Shown in pieces: positions 19,339-60,333 of a stretch of DNA of 64,000 bases (position 1 is its first letter; each line of letters starts with the position of its first letter). Under the pieces are notes generated by a model. The model saw nothing but the letters and a program-made list of their open reading frames with translations, ran no database searches and was not told the DNA's origin. Location of the stretch: the IMG/VR virus record IMGVR_UViG_3300045988_160639. One strand, given 5' to 3'. The translations under genes and the position numbers were made by a program. The stretch comes from a virus.

Positions 19339-19467
19339 CCTACAATGAAACAGGCTAATTAAAGCCGCATCGGTATAAAACCGAACTACAATCAATGCTG
19401 TTAATTGATTACATTTAATAGTATAGCACATTACTTTACATTTGTCAAGAACTTTTTGTAAAATTTA

Positions 19468-20016
19468 TTATTTGTTAACTATTGGATGATAACTGTATTT
19501 CATTATACTATTATCAATATTCAGTAATGTTTGTTGATCAACATAAGCATTAGATAATTTTGTTAAGTCAACTCTGATTACACTAACAGTTGTAACTCTT
19601 AACGTATTAACCCATCGGGGACGGAATGACATATTATAAATATTAGAGATTTCTACCCAATATCCTTTTGTTTTTCGTTTATTTAATATTTTTTGATCTA
19701 TAGGAGAACTATCAAGTGGAATAACAGTTATTGCATCAGAACCAATAAATGTTCTAAGTATAATTGCAGGGTGTCTTCCACCAAACTCACTACCAATATT
19801 AAAGCCAAAATCCACCCAAACAATATTACCACGTTTTATCATTGATTTTTGCTCTTCAGATAAAACAAAATTCCTTTCCCTTTTAATAGAATCGATATGT
19901 TCAGATAATGCAGAAAGATAATTCTTAGTACGTTTTACATCTTTTGCATTGTTATTATCAGTATCATTAATTAAATCTTGTAATTTAGAATTAACTTCAT
20001 TTAATAAATTTTGCAT
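19468..20016 (-). CDS. MazF/PemK-family toxin-like protein with a ~60-aa helical N-terminal extension
   Basis: 'RGNIVWVDFGFNIGSEFGGRHPAIILRTFIGSDAITVIPLDSS' matches the PemK/MazF core signature (G.I..V.F....G.E..G.RPa.vl....v.v.P.ts). The start is set at the ATG at 20016, preceded by AAGGAAGTG. The ORF-track start at 20076 lacks a Shine-Dalgarno. Confidence 0.7.
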   Translation of the reverse strand: MQNLLNEVNSKLQDLINDTDNNNAKDVKRTKNYLSALSEHIDSIKRERNFVLSEEQKSMIKRGNIVWVDFGFNIGSEFGGRHPAIILRTFIGSDAITVIPLDSSPIDQKILNKRKTKGYWVEISNIYNMSFRPRWVNTLRVTTVSVIRVDLTKLSNAYVDQQTLLNIDNSIMKYSYHPIVNK

Positions 20017-20047
20017 ATTGACACTTCCTTGTTGATATACTATTAAA

Positions 20048-20076
20048 ATAATAGCATATTTACAAGTAAATGTCAA
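20048..20076 (-). promoter_or_regulatory. Sigma-A-type promoter of the MazF-like gene with a palindrome in the spacer
   Basis: On the minus strand: TTGACA (20076-20071), 17 nt, TATTAT (20053-20048). The spacer contains the palindrome TTTACTTGTAAA. Confidence 0.6.
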
Positions 20077-20155
20077 TATTTATAAAAAATAATATATAAT
20101 TATGTTAAAACAAGCATTTTAATTTTGTGCATTTTGCTAAAAGTAAAAATACGTA

Positions 20156-20191
20156 TTGACATACTACAATAATTGTAGTATTATTGTAGTA
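20156..20191 (+). promoter_or_regulatory. Sigma-A-type promoter plus operator of the RHH-BRO operon
   Basis: TTGACA (20156-20161), 17 nt, TATTAT (20179-20184). The palindrome TACTACAATAATTGTAGTA (20162-20180) overlaps it and ATTGTAGTA is repeated at 20183-20191. Confidence 0.65.
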
Positions 20192-20210
20192 ATGAATGGA
20201 GGTGGACATT

Positions 20211-20351
20211 GTGAATGATAAAGCTTTAAATATCAAAATACCACAAGAGCTATATGATAAACTTAAACAAGAAGCTGAAAGAAAACATATTTCACTTGCT
20301 TCATTAGTAAGACTTATTTGTTCTGAATATTTTGAGAAACAAAGCTTATAA
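20211..20351 (+). CDS. Ribbon-helix-helix (CopG/Arc-like) DNA-binding protein
   Basis: 46-aa ORF missing from the ORF track (below 60 aa). GTG start 6 nt after GGAGGTGG. 'NIKIPQELYDKLKQEAERKHISLASLVRLICSEYF' fits a beta-strand plus two-helix RHH pattern. Confidence 0.65.
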   Translation: MNDKALNIKIPQELYDKLKQEAERKHISLASLVRLICSEYFEKQSL

Positions 20352-36025: not shown

Positions 36026-36379
36026 CACTATATTTTTATTCAACGAGGGACGCTAATCCTCGCCAGTTTTAAACTTCTTTATATTTCTATAAAGGATAGA
36101 CTATATCTTTACCCATTAAGGGCAAGCACCACTTCCATACGCTTGTATGTACTTCCTTACGGAATAGTCGTTGAACTTTACCTTTCGGTCTTAGCTGCTG
36201 ATTATCCATTGTTAAAGTGTTTAGGTTTTAACCTTGCACTATCTATTCAATTTTTTCTACTTTCGTAACATTCACGCTTATACCCTTTAAGGTATTACGT
36301 TGTAGTTTGAATAGTTTTAAGAGTTCCCAGCAATTCAATGCTTATTTTTACGCACATTTTTCAATATACGGAGTCTGCA
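36026..36379 (-). ncRNA. Group I intron in the major capsid protein gene
   Basis: On the minus strand the S element AAGATATAGTC (36099-36109) is identical to the classical group I S consensus. R is GTTCAACGACTAT (36164-36176), with P7 GACTAT/ATAGTC. A/T-rich P9 hairpins are present and a G at 36026 precedes exon 2. Boundaries are accurate to within a few nt. Confidence 0.7.
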
Positions 36380-37442
36380 AAATGTTAAACTCAATATCCA
36401 TACGAGTGAGTACATGACCGGTTGTTATATCATTACCACTGAATGTAGTCAGTCCACCTCTTGTCCAAGACTTAATAGGAGAACCGTACTGACCACCAGT
36501 AGGAACAACAATGGCAAGACCTGCATCGAGCATAGTATCAAAATTATCGCCAGTAGCATTGAGAGAAGAATAATCATAAGGATTTGTCATCTCTGCAAGA
36601 ATAGTTCCGTTATATGCACCGAGAATACCCTTTGTGCGAATATCTCTAAGGTCTTCTGCGGAAATGCCCTGTGTATAACCATATCTGGAAGAATTATATA
36701 CAAATTCAGAGTTATAACCTGCCCAAGGAGTAAACTGCTGAAGAAGTGCATAATCACCAATTACGGTAGCACCTGTGCCAAGTCTTCTTACCTTCTTGAG
36801 AACATCATCAACACCAGCCTTAGTGAGACCTGCACCCTCAAAGAAATACTTTACAGGAGTAGCGTTCTTAACAGCATTGTAAGCATTAGTTACAATAGCC
36901 TTCTTCATCTTATTGATAATATCAATTCTTACCTGATTCTTGCCTTCGTTCTCCTTAGACATATCACCAAGCATAAGTCTGCGGTAATCGGTAGCCCAAC
37001 CGCCAGAAATAGTCTTTGTGCCTACTGCATACTTGTCACCCGTAATTGCAGGGAAAATTACATCAGCGTTAAGTGCCTGCTCACGAGACTTGTCACCAAT
37101 AAACTTCCAAGACTCTACCTCAATAGACTCGTCATATCCAAGAGCTTCAAAATCACCGAATACAGCAAGATTCTGAATTTCTGCGGTAAGAAGAGGCTCA
37201 ACAGAATACTTTCTAATAGTGTTAAGTTCTGCAAGAGACTTAGGATCACCATTAGCAATACCTGCACCAAGTTCCTTGAGTCTATTTACAACAGCGTCTG
37301 TCTTCTTACCGTATTTAGACGTGTCCTTACCATCTGTAAGGGCGGAGAAAATTTCTACAATAGGAGAATTAGGCTTAATCTCATTTGTAAGAGTGACATC
37401 AGAATCACGTCTTACGTTGTTCATTTCAAAAGTCATATCCAT
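36348..37442 (-). CDS. Major capsid protein, exon 1 (the ORF's last ~10 codons are probably intronic)
   Basis: 364-aa ORF in the canonical position after the scaffold and decoration genes. It ends inside sequence that is homologous to the 5' ends of the TMP introns (AAATGTGCGTAAAAATAAG). Confidence 0.75.
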   Translation of the reverse strand: MDMTFEMNNVRRDSDVTLTNEIKPNSPIVEIFSALTDGKDTSKYGKKTDAVVNRLKELGAGIANGDPKSLAELNTIRKYSVEPLLTAEIQNLAVFGDFEALGYDESIEVESWKFIGDKSREQALNADVIFPAITGDKYAVGTKTISGGWATDYRRLMLGDMSKENEGKNQVRIDIINKMKKAIVTNAYNAVKNATPVKYFFEGAGLTKAGVDDVLKKVRRLGTGATVIGDYALLQQFTPWAGYNSEFVYNSSRYGYTQGISAEDLRDIRTKGILGAYNGTILAEMTNPYDYSSLNATGDNFDTMLDAGLAIVVPTGGQYGSPIKSWTRGGLTTFSGNDITTGHVLTRMDIEFNILQTPYIEKCA

Positions 37443-42427: not shown

Positions 42428-43527
42428 TCGTCATCACCGTTTTTATAATCCTTTGGTAATTTTATAAATGTTTCAACAGAAGGTCTGTTTTTTTTAGAGG
42501 TATCATCCGTAAAAATCCCATAGGGGTCTCCATATTGAGATAAATAATCATCTTTCATCTTATCATAAAAAGCATATACGTCTTTATATTCGCACAATGG
42601 AAGCCCTTTAAGCCTACGGCAATAGTTAATATAACACCAAATAATAAAATCTGGTGCATCATTGGGCTGGTATCTAAATCTTGGTAAGATTTCAACAATA
42701 TCTACTGCTTGCTCACAAGCTTTGGATATTTCGGAGATACAAGTTACACCACCTTGTAAATCAGCTTGTGTGAGTTGTTTGGGTGTAAGTTTTGCTTTAT
42801 CGGCAGCTTCTTGTGCTGCTTTGTTCCATTTGTCCGCAGATCCTACGTCCCCTTGTGCAGTGGCTTCCTCTTCTTTTACTTTAAAACGTACATATGTAGC
42901 GAGTGCTTCTTCGTGCAAATTTGTTTGTATAGAATAATTTTCTTTGAGTTTGTTGAACTTTTTAACCATTTTTCTATACTGCGTTTTTGTATATCCATCA
43001 CCAAACAAATCTAAAACATCATCGGTTACTACAAAGTCATCGACTTGCTTTACATACACTTCCTCATTCTTATTAACGGTCTTACCGGTTGTTGTAACTG
43101 CCGAAGAAACAGTTTTACCTTGAGATAAAAGATTTATAGAATCGAGAAATCCCAATTTTGAGTATTGCGGTAAAGTTCCTATATTTTTAAAATAACACCC
43201 TATAATATCAGTTCTACCTTTTCCAAGTTCAACCGATTTTTGTACTTCTTTTATAGCAGAGTCCAAAGCTTCTGGAACATAAGGCTTATCCATCAACATT
43301 AACTTCTGTTTAAACATTTCAACGTTTATAGTTCCATCTGAATTGCAAGACCCTGTTTTAATACAATTTTTACAAATATCGTAAGTTTTACCATCGCTTG
43401 AAACAGATGATATTTTGGAGGGCGATGATGAACTCACAACGTAGAATTGTGATAAATTTTTTTCTTTTCCACATTCTCGACATACTTTTTTTCCAACAGG
43501 TGCTTTAGCTCGTTTTTTTTGTGGCAT
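42424..43527 (-). CDS. Zinc-ribbon protein upstream of terL (small-terminase candidate by position)
   Basis: The start is set at the ATG at 43527, after GGAGGTGG. 'CRECGKEK...CKNCI' zinc ribbon. 4-nt overlap with terL. Confidence 0.4.
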   Translation of the reverse strand: MPQKKRAKAPVGKKVCRECGKEKNLSQFYVVSSSSPSKISSVSSDGKTYDICKNCIKTGSCNSDGTINVEMFKQKLMLMDKPYVPEALDSAIKEVQKSVELGKGRTDIIGCYFKNIGTLPQYSKLGFLDSINLLSQGKTVSSAVTTTGKTVNKNEEVYVKQVDDFVVTDDVLDLFGDGYTKTQYRKMVKKFNKLKENYSIQTNLHEEALATYVRFKVKEEEATAQGDVGSADKWNKAAQEAADKAKLTPKQLTQADLQGGVTCISEISKACEQAVDIVEILPRFRYQPNDAPDFIIWCYINYCRRLKGLPLCEYKDVYAFYDKMKDDYLSQYGDPYGIFTDDTSKKNRPSVETFIKLPKDYKNGDDE

Positions 43528-43589
43528 TATCCCACCTCCAATTTTTATTAATTTGGTCATCCTTAATTCCTAACACGGAACTTCAGATA

Positions 43590-43625
43590 TTAATAAAAGC
43601 ACCATTTTGTGATGAATGGTGCTTT
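43590..43625 (-). terminator. Terminator hairpin downstream of the integrase cassette
   Basis: 11-bp stem AAAGCACCATT / AATGGTGCTTT (43596-43606 / 43615-43625). A T4 run follows on the minus strand. Confidence 0.55.
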
Positions 43626-43804
43626 GCGGATTTTAGACGGTTTCCGTAACCCCTATATAAAACTGCTTTAGGTGCAGTAACCTTTACGGTTTTTAGTAGT
43701 ATCCTTCTACAATGGAATAGGTTTATTGTCTCTATTCCGACATTTCGTTTTATATTGTGTGGGTAAACCACTATGTCTTTTAATGTGTCTGCTGTGAGAC
43801 GATG

Positions 43805-44820
43805 TCATCCTTCAAATCCAAACATATCATTTATGACATCTTCATCTTTGTTCTTTAAGTATCCTTGGGTTGTTCCCACGTCTGTATGATGTGCCACTAC
43901 TCGGACGTGATCTAAATCAAACACCTTATTAGTTCCATCTGGATTTTTAAGCCTTTCATCCTGACCGGTAGATAAGCACTCCAAACGAGAATGTCTTATA
44001 CTATGTGGAAATATATTAACTTCTTCACCACGAATTTCAGATAATATCTTTGAGCATTTTAATATACGGTTGTAAAGGGCATCTTTGGTCACTTCCACCT
44101 TATTCTTACCGTGTCCGTTAATCCAAAGGCTTTCAATATCATCATTTCCACGTTCTTCAAGATATTGACGTATTAACTCTTTAGTGTCGTTTAGATAAAC
44201 AAGAGGAAATGTCTTGCCACGCTTTCCTTTAACAATATTTGTCTTGTTTCCATCAAGTAATCCTGCTTTCTTAACTTGGTATATTTCATTTCTTCTACCA
44301 GCAGAATCATAACTTAAACTCCATAAAACTGCTGTCTGTAAATCACCCATTTCAACAAGTTTATCTCTAACTGCTATAAATTCTTTAAACGTAAAGAAAA
44401 ATCGTCATCATTAGTTTTAACTCGTTCCCTCGGAAGACCTTTTACCTTTTTAGCATAATTGACATCATAATTGTATTCATCGTCCTCTTCGCAGTAAGTA
44501 AGCATACTGTTTACGGTCGCTTTAAGCCTATTTACTCTATTTGCCGACATATTACAATCTTCAGAAAGCCAAATACTCATATTTCTGAAATCTTTCTTGC
44601 TCATTTCAAGAATAGATTTATTTTTATGATGAAGTAATACATAAATTAAAATAAACCTTCCATCTTGAAAATAAGCTTCAATCGTAGAATTAGCTTTCTT
44701 TTGCTGTCTATATTCAGCGAGAAAATCTTCAAGTATAGCTTTATTTTCGGGATTTACTTGCTCCCAAAGTTCAGGAGTATAAACCCTATTATAAACACCT
44801 CTACTACGAGCCAATTTCAT
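43805..44820 (-). pseudogene. int: Tyrosine recombinase/integrase split by a frameshift in a T5 run
   Basis: ORF 44374-44820 is the N-terminal SAM-like domain. ORF 43805-44350 carries 'AGRRNEI', 'HSIRHSRL' and 'HHTDVGTTQGYL' (R..HxxR..H..Y). The second frame is open back to about 44403 ('FFTFKEFIAVRDKLVEMGDL'). The frames meet at GATTTTTCTTT (plus-strand A5 at 44397-44401). Confidence 0.75.
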
Positions 44821-45074
44821 CCCGTCCTTTCCAACTTTTAAATAATTATTTTCTCAGAACCATTATGGTAGGGTAGAGTTTAACGTCATTCCACCCTCGA
44901 CTGGACGTACCGTTTATTAAAAGAGTGTCGGTATTCACTTCATATGGGTGCGGAAGTTGGCTCTGCCCCAACGACCTCTTGCCTATGAAACAAGCGAGAT
45001 TCTGACTTCTCCATTCCGCAATAAAAAGACAGTGAGCTACTATTGCAACCCACCGTCTCAATGTTATTATTTAA

Positions 45075-45461
45075 TTATTCTTCAACAGAGAACACCGTTC
45101 CAAGACCATCAAGACACTTATACATATCTGTATTGACATCAGATGCTACATAATAGAAATCTGATTCACTGCCAAGATATCTCTTTGTTTCATCACTCCA
45201 AGCTTTCTCAACCCAGAGTTCAGGAATATTATCGTGCCAAGTGACACTTACATAATATTCGCCACCATAGTCAAAGTCATTATAATCAAGGAGCTGAATA
45301 TCTATATCATCGTCAATGTTCATCATTGCTTTGATAATAGGCTTTGCGATATCACCCTGTACTACTACAGATACATCAATCTTCTGCTTAACATCATCAA
45401 GTATATCACCAACTAACATTTCTGTTGTAGGATATGTATTATGGGACTTTACCTTTAACAT
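45075..45461 (-). CDS. Highly acidic hypothetical protein
   Basis: 128-aa Asp/Glu-rich ORF ('NIDDDIDIQLLDYNDFDYGGEYY'). Confidence 0.45.
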   Translation of the reverse strand: MLKVKSHNTYPTTEMLVGDILDDVKQKIDVSVVVQGDIAKPIIKAMMNIDDDIDIQLLDYNDFDYGGEYYVSVTWHDNIPELWVEKAWSDETKRYLGSESDFYYVASDVNTDMYKCLDGLGTVFSVEE

Positions 45462-45476
45462 ATAATTACCCCCGAA

Positions 45477-45758
45477 TTACTTACTTTCAGCAACTGTATC
45501 CTTGAACATCTTACCTGCCTTAAATGAAGGTACATTCTTCTCTGCTATTTCAATAGGCTTTCCGGTAGAGGGATTCACACCTGTTCTTGCAGTTCTCTTA
45601 TGCTTTTCAAAAGCACCAAAACCGACAAAATTTACTCTCTCACCAGCAGCAACACTATCAACAATAGTATCAAGAATCACTGTAAGCACCTCATCAATCT
45701 GTGCCTTAGAAAGCTCTGAGTTCTCTCTAACCTTTGTAATAAATTCAGCCTTTGTCAT
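45477..45758 (-). CDS. hup: HU-family DNA-binding protein
   Basis: 'MTKAEFITKV...LTVILDTIVDSVAAGERVNFVGFGAFEKHKRTARTGVNPSTGKPIEIAEKNVPSFKAGK' is a full-length HU/IHF signature. Confidence 0.9.
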   Translation of the reverse strand: MTKAEFITKVRENSELSKAQIDEVLTVILDTIVDSVAAGERVNFVGFGAFEKHKRTARTGVNPSTGKPIEIAEKNVPSFKAGKMFKDTVAESK

Positions 45759-45790
45759 ATATTTTAATTTCCTTTCAATATCAATAAATT

Positions 45791-46906
45791 TTAGTCTGCC
45801 ATCAGACTATAAATACACCTATCAGAACCGTCATAAACAATAAAGTTCTGACTTGGTTTTGTTATCTTACACAATGAAACGGCGTAATCGTCACTTCCAC
45901 ACAAATTACCATTAACAGTAACGAACACATCACAATCGTTTATATCCTTATAAGAATGTGTATGTCCAAGGTGAATTTCCTTTGGAAGTTTCTTATATAC
46001 ATTTGTAAAATCAGAAATTACAGTGGCAAGTTTATCATTCTGACCGTGTGCAACACAAATTAACTCACCATTGATTTCATATGATACAAAATCAAGACCG
46101 TGAGATGTAATGAGAGTTACACGCTTATCAAGTCTAAGCCTAAGAAATTCAGGAATAAGCATCTCGAAATTTTCAGATGTCGCACAAGCCTTCTTATCAG
46201 CGAAGCAACGACCATGATTGCCTAATGTGGTGACAACTTTAACATTCTCATAATATGGGATAAGCTTATTTATGACCTGTACAAGAAGTTCAGAAACACC
46301 TACTATCTGAGTGATAATATCAGCTTCTTCAACATTTCTTGACGATATATTTATAATACCGTCCAACATATCACCATTTATTTCAACAATAAGGTCTGTT
46401 ACACCGTGTTTCTTGCTCTTAGCAATAATCTTATCTACAATGATATTAGCACGTTCAACAGCAACATCTAAATCATAATAATTCCACTGATTATCTATTA
46501 GCTTGCCATAGTGCCAATCTGAAAACTGTGCAATACCATAAACTCTTTCTAATTTTATGCTTGACTTAAAATCATTCAACTTAATAGGTCTTAAATTCTT
46601 GATTTCTTCTTTGAGAACGTCTGTAAGTGTTTCAAATCTTGCTTCATCACGCAAAATTTTTCTCTTTTCTCTGAGAATGTCTGCATTTTTACAACGTTCT
46701 TTATATACTTCGTTTCTTAAAATTTCAAGACGTTCCTGTTCTTCAGTAGAACAACCCTCAGCAATCTTATTGACGAAATACTTATATACAGCATATCCAC
46801 CATAGCGACCGCCAGTAAATGATTTTCTAAGTACATCTGGATGAGTATTAGTGTTTAACTCATCAACCATATCCACCCAAGTTTTATTGTTCAGAGGATT
46901 ATCCAC
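45791..46906 (-). CDS. Calcineurin-like metallophosphoesterase
   Basis: Motifs 'FSDWHYG', 'INGDMLDG', 'TLGNHG' and 'LGHTHS'. The true start is probably upstream (in-frame ATA at 46954, 6 nt after AGGGAGGG). Confidence 0.75.
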   Translation of the reverse strand: MDNPLNNKTWVDMVDELNTNTHPDVLRKSFTGGRYGGYAVYKYFVNKIAEGCSTEEQERLEILRNEVYKERCKNADILREKRKILRDEARFETLTDVLKEEIKNLRPIKLNDFKSSIKLERVYGIAQFSDWHYGKLIDNQWNYYDLDVAVERANIIVDKIIAKSKKHGVTDLIVEINGDMLDGIINISSRNVEEADIITQIVGVSELLVQVINKLIPYYENVKVVTTLGNHGRCFADKKACATSENFEMLIPEFLRLRLDKRVTLITSHGLDFVSYEINGELICVAHGQNDKLATVISDFTNVYKKLPKEIHLGHTHSYKDINDCDVFVTVNGNLCGSDDYAVSLCKITKPSQNFIVYDGSDRCIYSLMAD

Positions 46907-46968
46907 CTTGTCTACAAGGTATTCAAGCTCCTCTTCATATGTAGAAAAATTTATATTAAGCCCTCCCT

Positions 46969-47151
46969 TTACAGTTTCTCACCATAAGAAACTGAAATCT
47001 TAACATCGGGCTTACCTACAAAATCCTTAATAAAGTCAGCAAGCACAACAGGCTCTTCCATATCTTCTACCTCGATAGTAATTATACCGTCATCAGTAGA
47101 AATAAGACCCTTTACGTCGCAACTATATTTTCTGTTAATTTTTGAAGCCAT
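46969..47151 (-). CDS. Small hypothetical protein
   Basis: 60-aa ORF in the operon between the PhoH and phosphoesterase genes. Confidence 0.4.
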   Translation of the reverse strand: MASKINRKYSCDVKGLISTDDGIITIEVEDMEEPVVLADFIKDFVGKPDVKISVSYGEKL

Positions 47152-47169
47152 TATAAATATCTCCTTGCA

Positions 47170-47871
47170 TTATTCTAATTCATCTGCATAGTTACTTATC
47201 CAACCACGATAATTATGCGTGAGCTGACACACAGCACACCTTTCATCTTTTGCAAAATGATTAAGATAACGTACAAACCCACTGTTCTGAGGGTTACTAT
47301 ATAAATCAATCTGTCCTGAATGACCTATAACAACCACCTTGCAATTATCGTGTATTCTTGTAAGCACCTTTTTCAATTCATCAGTGTAGTAATTCTGTGC
47401 CTCATCAACAATGACGATTTTATTTTCAAAATTACAACCACGCAAAAACGTGTGTGTCATACATTCTATATATGCAGTACCATTCTTTTCATTCATTATA
47501 TCTGAATACATAGCTGTATTTAGATTTACACCTATCTTTTCCAAAGCTTGATAAAAAGGCTCAAAATAGGGTTCACTTTTCTCTTCGATTGAGCCTTTAA
47601 GAAAACCCTGTTTCTGTTCTTGTGTAGGAGCAGCAATAAATACAATGCCATTATACCTTCCAAATTTAACAAGAAGGTCTGCTGTTGCAGTTGCTATTGT
47701 TGTTTTACCCGTTCCTGCTCTTGCATTACAAAATACTATAAGTTTATCTTTGTTCCAAATAGCATCTCTAAACGCCTTTTGCTCATCATCAAGTGTTAAT
47801 CCAAAGAAAGGATTGTCTTCTAATGTTTCCGGTGGATTATCATATGTAATAGAAATTGATTTTCTTCCCAT
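47170..47871 (-). CDS. phoH: PhoH-like ATPase
   Basis: 'CNARAGTGKTTIA' (Walker A), 'IVIVDEAQNY' (Walker B) and 'VVVIGHSGQIDL'. Confidence 0.8.
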   Translation of the reverse strand: MGRKSISITYDNPPETLEDNPFFGLTLDDEQKAFRDAIWNKDKLIVFCNARAGTGKTTIATATADLLVKFGRYNGIVFIAAPTQEQKQGFLKGSIEEKSEPYFEPFYQALEKIGVNLNTAMYSDIMNEKNGTAYIECMTHTFLRGCNFENKIVIVDEAQNYYTDELKKVLTRIHDNCKVVVIGHSGQIDLYSNPQNSGFVRYLNHFAKDERCAVCQLTHNYRGWISNYADELE

Positions 47872-47872
47872 A

Positions 47873-48496
47873 TTAAAGCACCTCGTCCAAGGAACAATCT
47901 ACACCAATAATATAGTCAGTAAAACCATATTTCTTTGCTTCATCAGCATAAGTGTAAAATTCTACACGATAATTTTCGTCATATTCCTTTTCAGTAAGGT
48001 TACTGTGTTCAAGAACATATTCCTTAATTCTCTGCTCACGTTTTTCTTGAAATTTAAGCTGGTCTTTACACTTTGCAGAGCTATCCCACACAAAATTCTG
48101 TCCATCGTGAAGAAGAAAAGTTGCATTTGGCATAGCATAACGTTTATGTCCTGCAAGACCAATAAGAAATCCCATACTATACTGGTATGCAAGATTTATC
48201 GTATACACTGGAGTTTTACTATTTGTAATGACATCTATAATTCCAAACCCGTCTATAACAGACCCTCCAACAGACGTACAATACAGAAAAATAGGCTTTC
48301 TATCAGCTACATCAATATCCTTATCTTCAACATTGAATCTCAAAATTTCATAGATTACATCGTGAGCTGAAATAGCTTCAATTTCATCATTGAGATAGAT
48401 TTTTCTCTCCGAATGCGAACTCATATCAAACAAGTCCATATATTCACAATTTACAGTGAGATTTGCATTTTCCAGAGGCTTCTTAACGTCAATCAT
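47873..48496 (-). CDS. clpP: ClpP-family serine protease
   Basis: 'IFLYCTSVGGSVIDGFGIIDVI', 'YQYSMGFLIGLAG' (catalytic Ser), 'FLLHDG' (His) and the C-terminal 'YADEAKKYGFTDYII'. Confidence 0.75.
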   Translation of the reverse strand: MIDVKKPLENANLTVNCEYMDLFDMSSHSERKIYLNDEIEAISAHDVIYEILRFNVEDKDIDVADRKPIFLYCTSVGGSVIDGFGIIDVITNSKTPVYTINLAYQYSMGFLIGLAGHKRYAMPNATFLLHDGQNFVWDSSAKCKDQLKFQEKREQRIKEYVLEHSNLTEKEYDENYRVEFYTYADEAKKYGFTDYIIGVDCSLDEVL

Positions 48497-48520
48497 ATTA
48501 AAATTTTCCTTAAAAATAAG

Positions 48521-48711
48521 TTACTGTCACACGACAGCCCTATGTTTTACATAGGATATTTGATTTTTTGTTACTGTCCCACAGCCGTACCTACTATAAG
48601 AAAAGGAGATAAAATATATTTTCAGGAGGTATATATTTATGAAAAGAGTTTGTAAAAGGAGATGAACCACAGTGGCTTGTGGATATAGTAGGTAGGGTTC
48701 TGGGACAGTAG
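48521..48711. repeat. TTACTGTC(A/C)CA-containing repeats: two direct copies plus one inverted 28-bp arm flanking a mini-ORF
   Basis: TTACTGTCACACGACAGCCCTATG at 48521-48544. TTACTGTCCCACAGCCGTACCTACTATA at 48571-48598. An imperfect inverted arm at 48684-48711. AGGAGG plus ATG at 48639 opens an 8-codon ORF (MKRVCKRR) between the arms. Confidence 0.6.
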
Positions 48712-48721
48712 GGATAGTTAG

Positions 48722-48916
48722 TTACTCAGTAATTGACCTAACATCAGTATTTCTGAGCTTCGCCAAAGCAATAAGATTTCTCTTTTCTTCAACAAGATAA
48801 TACTTTCCACGACCTGATTTAGTTCTGAGGGTCTTGTGGATTTCTACATTAGAAAGTATTTTTCTGAGTTCCTGCGCTTCGGCTTTTGAAATTGCGATCA
48901 AATTTTTAACCACCAT
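48722..48916 (-). CDS. Small basic hypothetical protein
   Basis: 64-aa ORF. Co-oriented. Confidence 0.4.
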   Translation of the reverse strand: MVVKNLIAISKAEAQELRKILSNVEIHKTLRTKSGRGKYYLVEEKRNLIALAKLRNTDVRSITE

Positions 48917-49025
48917 TCATAATAAATTTTTGTTTAATTTGTCAATTTACATTTGACTTATTGTGTGATATAGTATATACTAGGGGGCTTATTTAAAACT
49001 ATATCATATCATATATTAACAATAA

Positions 49026-49075
49026 TAGAAATCACCCACAAACCACATAGATACGTCATTTGTGGGTGATTTCTA
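49026..49075 (-). terminator. Terminator hairpin after 49097-49999
   Basis: 17-bp stem TAGAAATCACCCACAAA / TTTGTGGGTGATTTCTA with a 16-nt loop. Confidence 0.6.
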
Positions 49076-49096
49076 TATTAAATAAAAATACGGAAA

Positions 49097-49999
49097 TTAC
49101 TTCTTTTTTCTCTTTCTATCGTATTCCTTCACATATTTATCTTGACATTCATTACACCTCTTCTTATTTTTTACTATACCGACAACTTCAAACTCAGTAC
49201 CACAATCACAACAAACAATGGTTTTTATATTCTTTTTCTCATATCCTTGACATTTATCACAATATATCTGATGATTAGATTTCTTATAAAACACATTGCC
49301 ACACTTATTGCATTTTCTAATTTTCTTATTACCGTTATACCATTCAAACCAATATCCAATATTATTATAATTAATTATTTCAAACGCAACCTCGCCAAAA
49401 TCACCATTATAATCAATCTGCTCCATAAAGTTCATTCTGATACAACCGCGATTGTAAAGCTGTAAATAACCCCTCTTAGCAAGTTTTGAAATGAGGTCTA
49501 TATTTATATCTACCTTACTCGAAATATTACTTATTTTCTTCAGGTTAGAATATCTTGATGTTCCACCTTTAAAATAAATGTTATCATAAGGTTCATCTGG
49601 TTTCTTGATTTCAAAGTATTCTTTATTAAGTTTATAGACTATAAGCAATGTAAACAACAGTTTCTTTTCATCAAGAGTCAGTTCTGCACTATTGAAATAA
49701 TTAATCTCACACTTTAGAACAGGAACACTTTCTATTGTTATTAATTGATTTTTCTTACAAGTAGAATAATCTATCGCCTTATTAACCACCTTGTAGTATC
49801 TCATTCTGTGATAATCTTTGATATATTTCTTACAAATATTATGTAGTTCATTCTTTCTATCTTCCTTTTTTCTTATATCAAGAATATCACGAAGATAAAG
49901 TGCCACAAGTTTAATTTCTGTGTTAAAATACTTTTTAGAAAATCCGTGTTTAATTATATTTTCAGCATAATCTAAGTCTTTATATTTAAACTCATTCAT
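49097..49999 (-). CDS. Hypothetical protein with a C-terminal multi-CxxC zinc-finger cluster
   Basis: 300 aa. 'KCNKCGNVF..YCDKCQG...CCDCGTEF..RCNECQD'. Overlaps the upstream polymerase-like gene by 4 nt. Confidence 0.5.
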   Translation of the reverse strand: MNEFKYKDLDYAENIIKHGFSKKYFNTEIKLVALYLRDILDIRKKEDRKNELHNICKKYIKDYHRMRYYKVVNKAIDYSTCKKNQLITIESVPVLKCEINYFNSAELTLDEKKLLFTLLIVYKLNKEYFEIKKPDEPYDNIYFKGGTSRYSNLKKISNISSKVDINIDLISKLAKRGYLQLYNRGCIRMNFMEQIDYNGDFGEVAFEIINYNNIGYWFEWYNGNKKIRKCNKCGNVFYKKSNHQIYCDKCQGYEKKNIKTIVCCDCGTEFEVVGIVKNKKRCNECQDKYVKEYDRKRKKK

Positions 50000-52791
50000 A
50001 CTTCAACCTCCTGCACAGAATAGTTTTCACCCAAATATGTAACATTGCCGTTTTTATCAGGCATCGGAAACATCACTGTAGTTTTGTTCATTCTAAGTTT
50101 TTCATAAATATATCTACCTATTAACTCCCACATAACATCTTTACTTTTTTGAGGATTATTTATGTAAAAATAGTCAATTACATAATTAAACGCACAACAT
50201 ACGCTTCCGACAGAAGCTATAATATCATATGTATACTTTGAAAAATCAAATATGCCACGTTTATCCTTTTCTTTTTCTGCATTCTCAAACTGTAACTCTC
50301 TATAAAAAAGTAAACATTCATCAATAATTCCTGATACTTTTTTATAATCAGAATTATCATATTCAATATCGTATTTTAAATCTAATACAGCTTTATCAGA
50401 ACTTTCTTCTTTAATCTTTTTTGAAATTTCAAAGTTAATACCCTCTATGTATTTACAAAGCAAATTCATTGAACTATCGCTCATTGTAACAGGCATATAC
50501 TTATAATAATTATCTAAGAAAGTCATTTGTTCTGGGGTCTTTTGACTTAAATCAATTAAAGACTTTAAGGAAATACCAAAACGCTGTTTGCAAGCTGTTT
50601 CATTGCTATCAACATATTTATCATACTTCTTCTTACAATCAGGGTATCTGTATCTAAAGAAATATGGATATTTGTCAAGAAGAATACTATTATAAAACCT
50701 TATTTTCTCTATATCCTCTGGCGTATAGCTGTTCTTTTCAGCCGTTTTATCATCAGTTTTTCGATATTCAACCCATAATTTTGGAATACCCTTAACCTCT
50801 CGTCCCAGTTTAGTCTTATCAATCTGACAGCTCTGTGCTTTACAGCACTGGATTAACCTTGAATATGTAATTCTCCACATATCATTATCTTTGCCATATT
50901 TATCTTCAATTTCTTTAAGTAAAGCGTAAGCATTACTACTCTTATTTGTTATTTGACCAATAATTGAACCAAAACCAAACTTGTCGGCATTCTGAATATC
51001 TTCTTTTGTAAAAATTTTCTTTTCAGGCTTTGGAGCATCATACGTCATTGTTAATTCATTTCTGTAAACACCCTTAATAATTGTGGGGTCAGACGTTGTT
51101 GCTAAAATATCAAGATCAAAATCTGCACCCCCGAAATTCTGCACTGTATGACCAAACCAATTTATTATAATGCCAGTTTTGCAATACCTGTACCATTTCT
51201 CAGTTTCAGCATTCTTTTTTAAATTCATAACAACGTGTTCCGATCTGAAAGTGAGGGGAGACCTCATACCGTCTACCTGTGTTACGTTGCGCTCATTCCA
51301 ATAGTTTGAATAAAATTCATCTTTATCAAGTAATCCAGTTGGTTCAATACCACAAACGTGTTGCATATAAGCATATGGGTCAGATACTAAAGTCTGAAAA
51401 TTACCCTTGACATAAATATCACCCATGCAACCCTTTTTTATTTTATTCTTTATCAAATCCCTTATTTTTGTACGAATAAACTTATCATTCTTCAAATCGG
51501 GATTTACCACAAGTGACTTTAACCAATAATTATCACTACTTCTCAAAAAATTGTTTATGCTTTCTTCTGTATTATTTGCTCCAAGCAAAAACAGCAACAT
51601 ATATTCAAAGTTATCATATGAAACACCCGTTATCCAATCAACAAAAGGCTTGCATAGTTCCTTTATGTCAGTTTCGTTCAAGTTCAAAGTCTGTAAGAAC
51701 TGGTAATTCATCTTTAGAATGTTTTTACACTCTTTAGGTGCATACTGGGGAATACCCCATTTCAAACCGTTTTTGTGGCATTTTTCAAGGTAATCATCGA
51801 CACCATTATAACAATTCCAAAGCTTAAACTGCGATTCAGAAATAATAATGTCGTAATCTCGAAGATCAACTTTTATATAATTTCCACTTTCATCTTTATA
51901 AATCGTATCTACTATGTAATTGCCACCGTTTATTTCTTCACAAAATTCGTGAATGGGGAACGTACAAAGCATACCCTTTATAAAGCTTTGCCTTAATCCA
52001 AATTGTGAGGGTATATAATCTAATCCTAACTCATTAGCCCATTTCTTAGCCTGTCTTGGAGATATAAGTCCCATTCCGTCAGTTCTGTTAAAAGTCTGTG
52101 TAACGGTCTTATCTTCTACTAAATCATCGGTGTTTCCTGCTATCTCAGTTACAAAATGTACGTCAAAGGTATCGGTATTTTCAAAATCTTTAACTACAAT
52201 AAACTTTGGTTCACTTACAACCTGAGTTGCAGAACTGCTAAGTCCAAAATAGGCATTATATTTACTTGCAGCGAGAGGAATATTCTTGTTTCTGTCATTA
52301 TCAAGTCTGTGAATTACTTCATCAATAATATCATCTGGACAAACCACAATAGTTGATTTACGAGCTTGTCCAGCAGAACAACTCAACCTGTGATAAACCT
52401 TGCCGTTTATTTCAACGCCATTTTCACAAATATAATCATAATCTTTTGTGCTTTCCATAACGATAGTTACATAATCTTTTACATATAGCATATCGTCTAT
52501 TTCAGATTGTACTTTGTTTCTGTTAGCAACAATCTTTTCAATGTCATCTTTTCCAAGAGATTTTGAATTTGAAAGCTTTTTATCATAAATTTCTCTGTCT
52601 GTATATAATCCCTCAACCTTATCAAAATCAATAACCTGCCCACGGACTTCTCTTATTGTACGAAGCATCTGACTATCAGCCAATGCAATTACACATTTTA
52701 ATTTTTTAGCTTCATCAAATTCCATATTAATTTTATACCCAAATTCCTTCAGAAGCGAAGATTTAAATTTCAGTGTATATATCTGTCTCAT
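49996..52791 (-). CDS. RdRP-family / YonO-like single-subunit RNA polymerase candidate
   Basis: 931 aa. 'VDGMRSPLTFRSEHVV...IIINWFGHTVQNFGGADFDLDILATTSDP...FGFGSIIGQITNKSSNAY' parallels the RdRP-family (QDE-1/YonO) pattern 'v.RsP....d......vif......lsGGDxDGD......lG.i.n.h'. Confidence 0.55.
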   Translation of the reverse strand: MRQIYTLKFKSSLLKEFGYKINMEFDEAKKLKCVIALADSQMLRTIREVRGQVIDFDKVEGLYTDREIYDKKLSNSKSLGKDDIEKIVANRNKVQSEIDDMLYVKDYVTIVMESTKDYDYICENGVEINGKVYHRLSCSAGQARKSTIVVCPDDIIDEVIHRLDNDRNKNIPLAASKYNAYFGLSSSATQVVSEPKFIVVKDFENTDTFDVHFVTEIAGNTDDLVEDKTVTQTFNRTDGMGLISPRQAKKWANELGLDYIPSQFGLRQSFIKGMLCTFPIHEFCEEINGGNYIVDTIYKDESGNYIKVDLRDYDIIISESQFKLWNCYNGVDDYLEKCHKNGLKWGIPQYAPKECKNILKMNYQFLQTLNLNETDIKELCKPFVDWITGVSYDNFEYMLLFLLGANNTEESINNFLRSSDNYWLKSLVVNPDLKNDKFIRTKIRDLIKNKIKKGCMGDIYVKGNFQTLVSDPYAYMQHVCGIEPTGLLDKDEFYSNYWNERNVTQVDGMRSPLTFRSEHVVMNLKKNAETEKWYRYCKTGIIINWFGHTVQNFGGADFDLDILATTSDPTIIKGVYRNELTMTYDAPKPEKKIFTKEDIQNADKFGFGSIIGQITNKSSNAYALLKEIEDKYGKDNDMWRITYSRLIQCCKAQSCQIDKTKLGREVKGIPKLWVEYRKTDDKTAEKNSYTPEDIEKIRFYNSILLDKYPYFFRYRYPDCKKKYDKYVDSNETACKQRFGISLKSLIDLSQKTPEQMTFLDNYYKYMPVTMSDSSMNLLCKYIEGINFEISKKIKEESSDKAVLDLKYDIEYDNSDYKKVSGIIDECLLFYRELQFENAEKEKDKRGIFDFSKYTYDIIASVGSVCCAFNYVIDYFYINNPQKSKDVMWELIGRYIYEKLRMNKTTVMFPMPDKNGNVTYLGENYSVQEVEV

Positions 52792-57446: not shown

Positions 57447-57533
57447 TTTATATCTACCTCACTTTTGTCTGTTAAATTTGTACAAACCCGTTAATCCATA
57501 CTTAACTTATTACTTCGTGAAACTTATAAGTAT

Positions 57534-57601
57534 AAAAATTGTCCAATTATATGTTTTATATATACTATAATATACTATTATCTTAAATTTGGACAATTTT
57601 T
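57534..57601. repeat. 13-bp perfect inverted repeat upstream of the leftward array
   Basis: AAAAATTGTCCAA (57534-57546) and TTGGACAATTTTT (57589-57601), separated by 42 A/T-rich bp. Confidence 0.7.
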
Positions 57602-57665
57602 ATTATTCGTTTTTATCATCTCCTTTATTATTAGTAAAAGTTATAATTCGCCCTTTTTTCTTTTG

Positions 57666-57779
57666 CTACTTTTCTTTTTTGGGCGATAGTCGGCTATTTC
57701 ACATAGTTTTATGAGGCTTTGCGTAGCAAAGACCATAAAACGTGAAATGGACGAGTTTGTCAGCAAAAAAGAAAAGTAG
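57666..57779. repeat. ~114-nt imperfect long hairpin
   Basis: Outer arms CTACTTTTCTTTTTTG (57666-57681) and CAAAAAAGAAAAGTAG (57764-57779) are perfect. Inner arms CTATTTCAC/GTGAAATGG and GTTTTATGAGGCTTTGC/GCAAAGACCATAAAAC are near-perfect. The centre is at about 57722. Confidence 0.7.
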
Positions 57780-58022
57780 ATTTTCAAATCTTATTACTTA
57801 CTTATAATATATCCACAATACTATTATATCATATTTCATAAAAATGTCAAGCGCTTTTTTGTTTGATTGAATTTTATCTTTTACTTAAATATCTTAAATA
57901 TGATGCGTACAATGACCTGTAGCTTATAAAAGTTTATAAATTTTTCATAAAAACACAAGAAAACAATCTGTAATTTTTATAACCTTCGATTTATTTCTAT
58001 GAATTTATGATGTTTACTTGAT

Positions 58023-58470
58023 TTGAGATACTTCTGATATATTAAATATAGGTTTGATCTTTGATACTTTTGATTGATTTTTATAGTATTCGGAGAAAAT
58101 TTAGAATTTATCGGTGTTTGAGCGATTTAGATTTTGTGTTAATTTTTGAAGTGTTTGACATGTGATTTGAAGTGAATAGGTTGTATTTTGGGTTTAGAGT
58201 TGAGTGCAAATGAAGTATTGTGTATTATTCTTGAGATACTTGTATTAGGCTCTGTGATTAGATTTGAGAGGCATTTGTGTGGGTAGGATAATTTGTTGTT
58301 TGAAATGGTAAAGTGAGTGTAGAGTGTTCTGTGGTTTGTCTGAGAGTGCAGTGTGAGTATGGATTTTGAGTTCTTGAGATAGATATGTTTTGAGGTTGTT
58401 ATTGTTGGTCTGTAAGTGAGATAAATAGGGGAGTCAGCCGAAGAATAGTATCGAATGATTTTTGAGATAT
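58023..58470 (+). repeat. Dispersed TTGAGATA iteron-like repeats (4 copies)
   Basis: TTGAGATAC at 58023-58031 and 58231-58239, TTGAGATAG at 58374-58382, TTGAGATAT at 58462-58470. The first two share the 12-mer TTGAGATACTT. Confidence 0.55.
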
Positions 58471-58560
58471 TTTTGGAATATTTTTTTGGATTATGAGAAT
58501 GGATCATGAGAAAAAGAAATTATGGATGAGTGTCAATTTGGATTTTTAGACGTGTGAGTT
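58141..58560. other. C-depleted (G/T/A) block
   Basis: A hand count over 58141-58560 (420 nt) gives 122 G versus 19 C on the plus strand. Confidence 0.8.
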
Positions 58561-58779
58561 GAGTGGAACTACTATACTCTTCTAAGCAAATATTAACAAA
58601 CTTTTAAATGTAAACACACCCCCCCTGTACTGCCGATTCTATGTTATTTTTGTCCCAAAAGCAACATAGACAGTAATATTTTAGAAATATTTCTACTAAC
58701 ATTTCTTAATGAATTTTAAAGCTAATTTTATTAACATTTCTTGAATTTTTTATATAAATATTGTTGCCGGTAGCATTGA

Positions 58780-58829
58780 AAATAATGACTAACGGTCACT
58801 TTTTCAAATAATGACTAATGGTTACTTTT
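58780..58829 (+). repeat. Tandem ~26-bp direct repeat
   Basis: AAATAATGACTAACGGTCACTTTTT (58780-58804) and AAATAATGACTAATGGTTACTTTT (58806-58829). Confidence 0.7.
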
Positions 58830-58953
58830 AGTGGTTCGCTAACGTTGTTAATTTATTTAACACTGTTAAATAATTAAAACCAAATTAAAGCATAATAAAG
58901 AAAACAAGAGAAAATAAGAGAAAACAAAAGCTTACAAGAGATATTTTAAAAAA

Positions 58954-58990
58954 TACATCATAATACATCATAATATATCATAATACATAA
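58954..58990 (+). repeat. 10-bp tandem repeat (3.5 copies)
   Basis: TACATCATAA TACATCATAA TATATCATAA TACATAA. Confidence 0.7.
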
Positions 58991-59340
58991 GCCTATTTCT
59001 CTAATCGCCAATCCATAACAGCATTAAACTATACCACATTACTATAAATTACACCACATAACCATATATAACCACACCTAAACAGTACATAAATAACCAT
59101 CTTCAAATCTGCTCTGCTCTTCAGGTAAGCTCAACCTCTTCCGCTCAGGCACTTTCATATTTTGCAAAATAGCCAAATTTCACGTCCCAAAACTATGCAA
59201 TGTCACAACATAAATATATCTAACAAATCACATAATTATTACTAAATTATAAACGTCAATTATTGATTATCAATAACAAAATATCAATTCGCAATAAAAT
59301 TATATCAAATAACAATAAATCACGCACACGCCATTTTAAC
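58981..59340. other. G-depleted (A/C/T) block, compositional mirror of 58141-58560
   Basis: A hand count over 58981-59340 (360 nt) gives 87 C versus 22 G on the plus strand. Confidence 0.8.
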
Positions 59341-59565
59341 GCACCTGTTAGGGTAATTATACCACTATAAACAAAACGTCATACAGCGCATTGTAGCAGC
59401 ATTTACGACGATTTTATCCGCTTCCAGTCTGATTATACAATATGCACAATACACTGCCGTTATATTTATATATTATACCTATTGACATTTCAATATTGCA
59501 CGTTCTAATTGCATTTGGCTATTAGCTCCGACGCTTATACAAATACTTTATTGCGTTAAAATATA

Positions 59566-59748
59566 TCAATTAAGTATATTATTATCAATACAGTATGTTA
59601 TCATCGTTTCAATAGCTTCTTTTTTTGTAATATCATTTTGTTTACAGTAGTTAATAAATAATTCATATATTTCATTACTTATTGTAATGTTTAATTGTTT
59701 GTTTTTATTATAATAATTTGTTAATGCTTTTTTCACACTTTCTTTCAT
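59566..59748 (-). CDS. Ribbon-helix-helix-like regulator
   Basis: 60 aa from the ATG at 59748 (GAGGGGG upstream). 'QLNITISNEIYELFINYCKQNDITKKEAIETMITY' fits a strand plus two-helix pattern. Adjacent to an operator array. Confidence 0.5.
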   Translation of the reverse strand: MKESVKKALTNYYNKNKQLNITISNEIYELFINYCKQNDITKKEAIETMITYCIDNNILN

Positions 59749-59776
59749 ATCTAAATCAGCCCCCCTCAATTATAAT

Positions 59777-59945
59777 ATTTGTGCATTATTATATGCTATT
59801 TTTCAAAATTTGTGATTGTATTTCCTCAATTTGTGCAATATCACAACAAATATACACTATATACAGTATATTCAACTATTTATACGCTGTTTAATACTCA
59901 TATTTCATTGTCATTTTGCACAAATTCCGTTATATTGCACAAATT
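59777..59945. promoter_or_regulatory. Operator array of TTGCACAAATT motifs
   Basis: TTGCACAAATT at 59916-59926 and 59935-59945. Inverted AATTTGTGCAA at 59828-59838. Partial copies ATTTGTGCA at 59777-59785 and AATTTGTGA at 59808-59816. Confidence 0.6.
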
Positions 59946-59952
59946 GACTCGC

Positions 59953-59981
59953 TTTACATATTGCTAGGTATATGTTATAAT
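59953..59981 (+). promoter_or_regulatory. Extended -10 sigma-A-type promoter facing the rightward operon
   Basis: TTTACA (59953-59958), 17 nt, TGtTATAAT (TG at 59973-59974, TATAAT at 59976-59981). It lies immediately downstream of the operator at 59935-59945. Confidence 0.55.
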
Positions 59982-60076
59982 ATAATCAAGATAAGGGAAG
60001 GGAAAACAAAAGAAAACAAAATTCCCAACCTAAATAATATCATAAACCAACAAAAATGTCAAGCATATTTTTCAAC

Positions 60077-60105
60077 TTGACAAAATCGAAAGGAAGTTAT
60101 AAAAT
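60077..60105 (+). promoter_or_regulatory. Second sigma-A-type promoter of the rightward operon
   Basis: TTGACA (60077-60082), 17 nt, TAAAAT (60100-60105). This leaves a leader of about 220 nt before the ATG at 60334. Confidence 0.5.
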
Positions 60106-60333
60106 GACTACAATAAAAGCAACGTTCATTCAAGTGCTCTGTTTTAGGCTTTCCGAATTTTTCAGAAGGTCGCACAAAAAGCAGGTTACAAGAGCCTGCA
60201 CAATGGAATCAATTTAAAAGTAACGGCTTCAACGGCTGAACCAATAAATCAGCCGTCAATATCACGACAAAAAGGTAAATCCCTTCAAGCCGTGCCAAAG
60301 ATAAGCAAATAATAATTATGGAGGTTAAAACAT

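Follow-up and report, generated by a model that had tools for sequence, protein, structure and literature searches.

The DNA of IMG/VR virus record IMGVR_UViG_3300045988_160639 raises the question of whether this phage transcribes its late genes with an RNA polymerase of its own and, if so, with what partner. The stretch analysed is 64,000 nt long and is referred to here as the window. A sequence-only reading of it had singled out a 931-amino-acid (aa) protein with a YonO-type catalytic loop as a candidate phage RNA polymerase. For YonO, from the Bacillus subtilis prophage SPbeta, DNA-dependent RNA polymerase activity has been proven by experiment (Forrest et al. 2017, PMC5467207). The enzyme transcribes 37 late genes of SPbeta, and its Asp triad is essential; it strongly prefers DNA templates and is highly processive, and its deletion silences late genes specifically (PMC5467207). 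We consider it probable that the window encodes a DNA-dependent polymerase of the YonO family which, jointly with a partner protein, transcribes the late genes. The two genes are as follows.

49996..52791, minus strand: gene for the 931-aa predicted single-chain two-barrel RNA polymerase, '931-type' subfamily of the YonO family (open reading frame, PF05183, YonO homology, AlphaFold2 model, Foldseek)

49097..49999, minus strand: gene for the 300-aa basic partner, with a helical N-terminal body (about aa 1-220), two Cys4 ribbons and a basic tail (open reading frame, linkage, AlphaFold2 model)

The 931-aa open reading frame (ORF) is real, and the three motif segments that first drew attention to it are found verbatim in its translation. 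The Pfam profile PF05183, named RdRP for RNA-dependent RNA polymerase, matches aa 116-681 over profile positions 56-560 of 582, scoring 47.4 bits where the gathering cut-off is 23.8 (E=1.6e-12). Homology to YonO is direct (BLASTP E=1e-26); the alignment pairs GGADFDLD with YonO QFDNDGD and MRSPLTFRSEH with LRSPHLFR-EH, and the window motifs fall on RSP, DNDGD and IGEYSN of YonO. Profile-profile comparison with the YonO subfamily (hhalign) gives a probability of 100% (E=7.4e-46, 658 aligned columns). It spans window aa 104-903 and YonO 112-793; the polymerase bodies are thus alignable up to YonO residue 793. The proposed kinship with YonO holds, but the protein differs from a typical YonO in belonging to a subfamily of its own, with about 25% identity and without the C-terminal ribbon of YonO. 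T7-like and multisubunit (beta, beta') RNA polymerase families have no Pfam match to the 931-aa protein.

Two-barrel polymerases have eight invariant residues in common (Ruprich-Robert & Thuriaux 2010, PMC2919709). All eight are present in the window protein with the spacing found in QDE-1, a eukaryotic RdRP. They are also invariant in an alignment of 63 sequences from the window (931-type) subfamily and the YonO subfamily, between which identity is 21-25%. In the first barrel, QDE-1 D709, R738 and K743 correspond to window D238, R267 and K272, and the intervals of 29 and 5 residues are the same in both proteins. Further along the chain, R962 and P964 correspond to R510 and P512, and D1007, D1009 and D1011 to D557, D559 and D561. 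The likeness of the motifs to those of RdRPs and YonO is not due to chance, as R510-x-P512, D557-x-D559-x-D561 and G612/N616 are invariant in the 63 sequences. The codons concerned are located as follows.

51109..51123, minus strand: codons of the predicted catalytic metal-binding triad D557-F-D559-L-D561, second barrel (alignment with YonO D-N-D-G-D, QDE-1 equivalence)

51256..51264, minus strand: codons of R510-S-P512, the invariant R-x-P (63-sequence alignment; QDE-1 R962/P964)

51976..52080, minus strand: codons of D238, R267 and K272, first-barrel active-site residues (invariance in 63 sequences; QDE-1 equivalence)

The AlphaFold2 model built from the 63-sequence alignment has a mean predicted local distance difference test score (pLDDT) of 89.7 and a predicted template modelling score (pTM) of 0.85, and it matches the two-barrel fold of QDE-1 and RDR2. 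In a Foldseek search of the Protein Data Bank (PDB), the top 21 neighbours are all QDE-1 (two fungi) or RDR2 (maize, Arabidopsis), each with probability 1.00. These matches have E=2.6e-17 to 9e-14, template modelling (TM) scores of 0.37-0.48 and about 760-970 aligned columns. Multisubunit beta' subunits are only marginal matches (E about 0.06-0.2; at least 0.058). By this fold match, the single chain is predicted to hold both double-psi beta-barrels. QDE-1 (2J7N, 7Y7T) and RDR2 (7W82, 7RQS) thus have the fold, the Pfam family and the eight invariant residues in common with the window protein; they differ in having only 12-15% identity to it and in lacking a ribbon partner and a phage context. 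A PDB sequence search with the single protein found nothing, and the family profile reached only RDR2 (E about 0.004). Four lines of evidence therefore carry the assignment: the Pfam match, the homology to YonO, the invariant residues and the predicted fold. From this combination, the 931-aa protein is almost certainly an active two-barrel polymerase of the YonO family. All the computational checks suggested in the sequence-only reading turned out in its favour.

The 931-type subfamily is large and widespread; 902 of 8,000 candidate proteins scored belong to it at E<=1e-5, and they occur in gut and soil Bacillota phages and prophages. Metagenomic data contain 69 contigs, the longest of 394 kb, with an identical or near-identical copy of the window gene; many of these contigs are about 70-120 kb, the size of SPbeta-like genomes. 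Among 50,697 phage records, 42 are matched by the polymerase in a tblastn search, while megablast of the phage records finds no match. The closest record is Bacillus phage BUCT082 (45.6% identity, full length), followed by Clostridium phage c-st and Enterocloster phages (about 30-34%); SPbeta yonO ranks behind these (25.8%, E=2e-20). The nearest species-representative genome is a metagenome-assembled genome (MAG) of Angelakisella with just 60% identity in the polymerase. The subfamily is carried by, among others, Lachnospiraceae, Bacillus, Paenibacillus and Virgibacillus, with prophages in Paenibacillus alvei TS-15, Virgibacillus profundi and Bacillus glycinifermentans GO-13, and the host of the window phage may lie somewhere within the gut Bacillota. 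The protein belongs to phrog_8308 in PHROGs, a family without assigned function; NCBIfam has no model matching it.

The polymerase gene is intact in the window; it is split in about 12 relatives (L047 7689-8493; L054 7716-9096; L042, L048, L053, L056, L060, L061, L064, L069 and L087; and c-st, L003 7653-8022). The first break is inside the codons of the Asp triad, for example ...GGADFD | GDIVASTD... in L047, and the inserts hold HNH homing-endonuclease ORFs of 174 and 255 aa. In Bacillus velezensis (L168 4878-6185), YonO is broken at about aa 625 by a GIY-YIG endonuclease ORF. The resulting 625-aa forms were considered as natural subunit splits; this was ruled out, as they are endonuclease-ORF insertions. 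Group I introns were also considered for the interrupted genes of relatives and found no support: no Rfam group I intron model matches, and the inserts carry HNH or GIY-YIG endonuclease ORFs.

The second gene had been described as encoding a multi-zinc-finger protein and as overlapping the polymerase gene by 4 nt; both descriptions are correct. The junction is GTATGAATG (ATGA), so the partner ATG and the polymerase TGA have bases in common. The partner has two ribbons, of which only the first is general in its family.

49250..49312, minus strand: zinc ribbon 1 (C230-x2-C233 ... SN-x3-Y-C247-x2-C250), common to the YonO C-terminus; C230, C233 and C247 invariant in 86 diverse homologs

49145..49213, minus strand: zinc ribbon 2 (C263/C266/C282/C285), confined to some members of the family; invariant among the close homologs

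Seven of the eight cysteines (C230/C233/C247/C250 and C263/C266/C282/C285) are invariant in 26 homologs, and C250 is nearly so. The cysteines of ribbon 2 are not invariant family-wide; many partners of 240-270 aa match the profile only to about position 250. At E<=1e-3 the family comprises 893 representative clusters, and every one of the top 150 stands alone as a protein of about 100-380 aa. The AlphaFold2 model of the partner has a pLDDT of 94.8. It has no significant neighbour in a Foldseek search of the PDB (best E 0.88), where a local resemblance to winged helices is weak. In a viral structure library it matches only its own family from gut phage MAGs, under inconsistent automatic names. 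Pfam and PDB profiles detect only generic ribbons in the partner, confined to the ribbon region, and there is no sequence or fold similarity to the sigma-70 family or to TFB/TFIIB in Pfam, Foldseek PDB or PDB profile searches. The two proteins are complementary in charge, with isoelectric points (pI) of 9.3 for the partner and 5.7 for the polymerase. The polymerase ends in an acidic, Cys-free tail of 28 aa (pI 4.05) at the place of the YonO ribbon.

The polymerase and partner genes are consistently paired. In 78 of 78 IMG/VR loci the polymerase gene is directly followed by a partner homolog; these loci were retrieved with the polymerase alignment and extend from 99% down to 32% polymerase identity. 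The homolog typically overlaps the polymerase stop codon by a few bases. A second set comprises 40 further 931-type loci, from species-representative genomes and three phage records. The partner is present in 37 of these and a ribbon on the polymerase in none (0/40). YonO-type genes have the opposite arrangement: a Cys4 ribbon is found in the last 90 residues of 41 out of 44, and a full partner gene accompanies none (0/44). In the YonO-type locus L153 the ribbon alone forms a 47-aa ORF, 7 nt downstream. In the loci examined, a partner gene and a fused ribbon never occur together.

The ribbon in the partner is related to the one in YonO. Profile positions 225-300 of the partner align with 794-834 of the YonO C-terminus (hhalign probability 93.8%, E=1.7e-7), with the common signature CxxCG-x7-(S/N)N-x-(Q/K)-x-(Y/M/L)C-xx-C followed by a tail rich in lysine and arginine. 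Homology of the whole partner to the YonO C-terminal region was considered and ruled out, as the alignment is limited to ribbon and tail. YonO (839 aa) and the window polymerase agree in the eight active-site residues, in holding both barrels in a single chain, in their position ahead of HU and the late structural genes, and in the terminator after the gene. They differ in that YonO carries its own zinc ribbon and basic tail at aa 794-839, whereas the window protein ends without them and has extra inserts such as aa 723-763; the window polymerase has a separate partner gene adjoining, and YonO has none. Because of the partner adjacency, the fused ribbon in YonO-type genes and the mutual exclusion of the two arrangements, the gene organisation of the window system marks it as a separate variant of the YonO polymerase that consists of two genes, one of which presumably supplies the ribbon in trans.

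Three phages with named genes have the same organisation. BUCT082 (UAW07825/UAW07826), c-st (CST179 and CST178/CST177; 30% identity, polymerase gene interrupted by an insert) and Enterocloster phage PMBT24 (WDQ45559/WDQ45558; 32% identity) all have a 931-type polymerase with an abutting partner. Their partners have one ribbon each, whereas the window partner has two, and the phages and hosts differ. These genes are unstudied and are annotated as hypothetical, as 'RNA-dependent RNA polymerase' or as 'YonO homolog (C-ter only)'. PMBT24 is reported to encode a phage sigma factor. When all phage records are searched by tblastn with the BUCT082 partner, the matches are limited to BUCT082 itself and c-st; no YonO-type phage is among them.

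Linkage, translational coupling and the fused-or-split ribbon make it reasonably likely that the partner is a physically associated subunit or an initiation factor; in its most likely form, it would be a tightly bound subunit or initiation factor contacting DNA. The earlier suggestion of a specificity factor is thus strongly supported as to a functional tie, through linkage and the fusion of the ribbon in YonO; the specific role is one that we infer. There is an analogy with multisubunit RNA polymerases and TFB/TFIIB, where a two-barrel centre also works with a separate zinc-ribbon factor, but the domain order is reversed, since the ribbon is C-terminal in the window partner.

Alternatively, the partner could lie outside the transcription machinery and have no more than a transcript in common with the polymerase; it would then be a DNA-binding regulator in its own right or a degenerate HNH-type nuclease. 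Its N-terminal body is unlike known transcription factors, zinc ribbons are common and versatile, and the partner has a weak PHROG match to an HNH endonuclease family (E=7e-4). However, no conserved His/Asn catalytic residues are found between the cysteine pairs. The stop/start-overlapping adjacency persists over the whole range of polymerase identity, and the mutual exclusion of partner gene and fused ribbon is hard to reconcile with an unrelated function. In addition, the homology to the YonO C-terminus is specific to this ribbon (the partner profile matches 0 of 20 unrelated ribbon ORFs from the same loci), and the partner family is seen only beside 931-type polymerases in the loci examined. 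We regard this alternative as unlikely.

The genomic setting of the pair is that of SPbeta. On the minus strand, the gene order starts with a 401-aa ORF, a 106-aa ORF, a Bro-N anti-repressor-like gene, two small ORFs and an N6/N4 DNA methylase. The polymerase, the partner, a hairpin terminator, a 64-aa ORF, a ClpP-like protease and PhoH follow. Next are a 60-aa ORF, a YonJ-like metallophosphoesterase, HU, YonG_N, the terminase large subunit and the portal, and then the tape measure, tail proteins and a GH25/M15 endolysin. This layout parallels yonO-yonN(HU)-yonK-yonJ-...-yonG-yonF-yonE of SPbeta. BUCT082, which is classified as Spbetavirus, has its 931-type gene and partner exactly in the yonO slot. 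Judged by this synteny, the polymerase gene heads an SPbeta-like block of late genes. The 60-aa ORF (46969-47151) was considered as a YonK homolog and dropped, as there is no BLASTP or Pfam support.

The sequence-only reading had also stated that the window holds no T7-like or multisubunit RNA polymerase gene. This is true of the ORFs scanned, namely every other ORF of 500 aa or more (nine) plus seven shorter ones; none of them matches a polymerase family, in a window that is part of a genome and with small ORFs, the size class of sigma factors, covered in part. The phage may therefore encode a sigma factor elsewhere, as PMBT24 is reported to do. Three of the large ORFs scanned have no family match in either library.

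YonO homology and this context make it likely that the polymerase is DNA-dependent and serves the late genes. The proposed course of events begins with host sigma-A RNA polymerase, which would transcribe the polymerase gene in an early or middle operon, from a promoter near 57850 to a terminator at 49027-49074. The polymerase would be translated together with the overlapping downstream partner gene. The pair would then transcribe the late genes for packaging, head, tail and lysis, a block reaching from about 49 kb to 3.6 kb, and would do so without the need for host sigma-A promoters. For catalysis, the D557/D559/D561 triad of one barrel would bind magnesium and act with D238/R267/K272 of the other. 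The partner would provide in trans the zinc ribbon and basic tail that are fused at the C-terminus in SPbeta YonO, and would add a helical body of about 220 aa that is absent from YonO. The putative signals in and around this operon are as follows.

57823..57850, minus strand: extended sigma-A-type promoter match TTGACA-16-TATAAT with TG (12/12 consensus match only)

49027..49074, minus strand: intrinsic-terminator-like hairpin with 16-bp arms and a T-rich tail, directly after the partner stop (-33.7 kcal/mol, z=-8.5)

48497..49026, minus strand: candidate region for the late transcription start (two conserved non-coding gaps flanking a conserved 64-aa ORF; stable stem)

The operon extends from 57446 to the partner gene. 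The promoter match at 57823-57850 is located upstream of it and is likely to be the host RNA polymerase promoter for the phage polymerase. The hairpin stem is preserved by paired changes in relative L011, and SPbeta has a stem-loop at the equivalent position after yonO; the hairpin is thus predicted to end the polymerase-partner transcription unit. An Rfam search of window positions 43000-49200 (E<=1) gave spurious matches to this hairpin only. Late genes had been expected to lack promoters of the sigma-A type. This is weakly supported: no intergenic sigma-A-like site of at least 10/12 is found on the coding strand from 49.1 to 23.2 kb, while several are found upstream of the polymerase operon. 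The other half of the expectation, promoters of a different kind, did not materialise as any alternative motif.

Ahead of the ClpP-like gene, the gap at 48497-48721 has a folding energy of -59.1 kcal/mol (z=-6.95). It contains a long-range stem of about 140 nt at 48573-48710, in which about 24 bp enclose about 90 nt, followed by two small hairpins. One compensatory pair is seen among seven close relatives, and the C-rich 5' arm is conserved even in L012, the downstream sequence of which diverges. This stem may be a late-leader element and is a candidate for one. Between the structured gap and the terminator of the partner gene lies the 64-aa ORF (48722-48916, minus strand). A ribosome-binding site cannot be recognised for this ORF; nearly all substitutions among relatives are at third codon positions, and it is therefore a real gene under purifying selection. 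Its product is basic (pI 10.2) and could be another small DNA-binding factor. The word GACAGTAAC was considered as a promoter element and rejected: it has two copies upstream of the ClpP gene, of which one is an arm of the long stem, and it is not over-represented elsewhere.

SPbeta and BUCT082 provide a direct comparison of the fused and the split enzyme. The SPbeta late leader lies between yonN and yonK and contains the interval bracketed by published primer-extension primers, which place the start site within L001 8943-9135. SPbeta L001 8844-10351 and BUCT082 L002 7447-8973 are 94.9% identical over 1,530 nt, while the two polymerase genes, from different subfamilies, have no detectable nucleotide similarity. 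The fused YonO and the split polymerase with its partner therefore appear to serve essentially one late leader. A 20-nt element, TAATAGTCATTTATGAGGGT, is found in the SPbeta start-site interval, with a second copy about 155 nt upstream. Its form is TAAT-NN-TCATTTATGA-R-GGT; the copies are at L001 8883-8902 and 9040-9059, one of them inside the bracketed interval, and the element also occurs in BUCT082 and in two Bacillus prophage loci. It is a possible YonO promoter element.

Orphan Rfam motifs occur downstream of several polymerase modules: DUF3800-VIII in the SPbeta late leader (L001 10018-10083), drum and DUF3800-XI in L047 (12476-12629), and RAGATH-18 just upstream of the c-st HU gene (L003 11941-12001). 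Motifs of this kind have no match in the window. They may be leader parts of polymerase-dependent late transcripts.

A number of observations weigh against the proposed system. The window lacks the SPbeta start-site element; the only matches have 2-3 mismatches and are at chance level. Motifs among the 20 minus-strand intergenic gaps of the window are no better than in shuffles, and the 1.5 kb past the partner in 37 non-redundant loci yields only A-rich words, words resembling ribosome-binding sites and words of coding bias. Three 931-type loci (L116, L118 and L121) show no partner; in L118, about 900 nt are left after the gene. The partner profile detects the ribbon in just 12 of the 41 fused enzyme C-termini, and the similarity spans only 41 columns. 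No known sigma, TFB/TFIIB or other transcription factor is similar to the N-terminal body of the partner, which leaves linkage and the ribbon as the only arguments for the role of this protein. The function of the polymerase and of its subfamily is assigned by homology and context. Finally, the closest solved structures are RNA-dependent enzymes, and the Pfam family bears the name RdRP.

The last point would fit an enzyme that copies transcripts of the phage or the host into double-stranded or antisense RNA, for instance for regulation or counter-defence. Eukaryotic RdRPs copy RNA for silencing; homologs in PMBT24 and Perkons are annotated as 'RNA-dependent RNA polymerase', and QDE-1 uses both RNA and single-stranded DNA templates (PMC9508822). 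These annotations are automatic transfers of the Pfam name, however, and support for an RNA template is limited to this name and to which relatives have structures. YonO, the sole characterised bacterial or phage member, strongly prefers DNA and drives late transcription; the window gene is in the yonO slot of an SPbeta-like late module, and a tailed phage with double-stranded DNA has no known need of RNA copying. An RNA-dependent role is thus very improbable, and the window enzyme is predicted to be DNA-dependent. Least probable of all is the synthesis of primers or short RNAs on single-stranded DNA for phage replication or recombination in place of mRNAs: archaeal PolD uses the same two-barrel catalytic core and HU, PhoH and metallophosphoesterase genes are nearby, but YonO is highly processive and its deletion silences late genes specifically, and the window gene is at the boundary of the structural module and not among replication genes.

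Several features of the window lie outside the polymerase locus. The minus strand has a group I catalytic intron at 36077-36397 (RF00028, 69.3 bits; gathering score 50). This intron extends into the 3' end of ORF 36348-37442, among the head genes, where it probably splits a structural gene. A Pistol ribozyme (RF02679, 60851-60922, plus strand, 67.5 bits) and a type-P5 twister ribozyme (RF02684, 61324-61400, plus strand, 39.6 bits, barely over the gathering score) are about 400 nt apart, between short plus-strand ORFs of the presumed early region. The region 57450-60330, about 2.9 kb and upstream of the polymerase operon, is poor in ORFs and has multiple strong sigma-A-like matches on both strands (for example 60062-60034 minus and 60077-60105 plus); it is probably an early divergent control region. 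Within the late block, the minus-strand island 19400-23200 contains four strong TG-extended sigma-A-type promoter matches, at 20455 (12/12) and at 23140, 20076 and 19448 (11/12), several non-coding gaps and an opposite-strand ORF (20481-21416, plus strand). It looks like an accessory ('moron') insertion between tail genes, expressed by host RNA polymerase.

The polymerase itself belongs to an already known kind and would be picked up by a routine Pfam scan. Iyer et al. (2003), as cited in PMC2919709, already made YonO-like proteins of Firmicutes phages known, and a 2021 survey lists c-st and 0305phi8-36 as carriers of YonO-like enzymes. The literature searched contains no description of a separate subfamily with an obligatory partner, nor of the YonO C-terminal ribbon as the fused counterpart of a partner ribbon; the c-st record noted the ribbon similarity solely as 'YonO homolog (C-ter only)'. 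In PHROGs, both families are without function or unlisted, and GenBank calls the polymerase hypothetical or 'RNA-dependent'; a transcription system encoded by the phage itself therefore goes unnoticed by current annotation pipelines in many gut phages.

No smaller relatives of cellular RNA polymerases are known than the YonO-type enzymes, which serve as models of the ancestral polymerase. The partner or fused ribbon is a concrete candidate for the module through which they would find promoters, be it for initiation or for DNA binding. The shared leader supports functional equivalence of the fused and split enzymes; BUCT082 (split) and SPbeta (fused) form a natural test pair on near-identical leader DNA. 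It is conceivable, and we propose it tentatively, that the partner family is a previously unrecognised initiation or specificity subunit for single-chain two-barrel polymerases, in which the ribbon and tail enable promoter finding without sigma. If true, this would answer the question posed in 2017 of whether YonO recognises promoters alone or with a factor.

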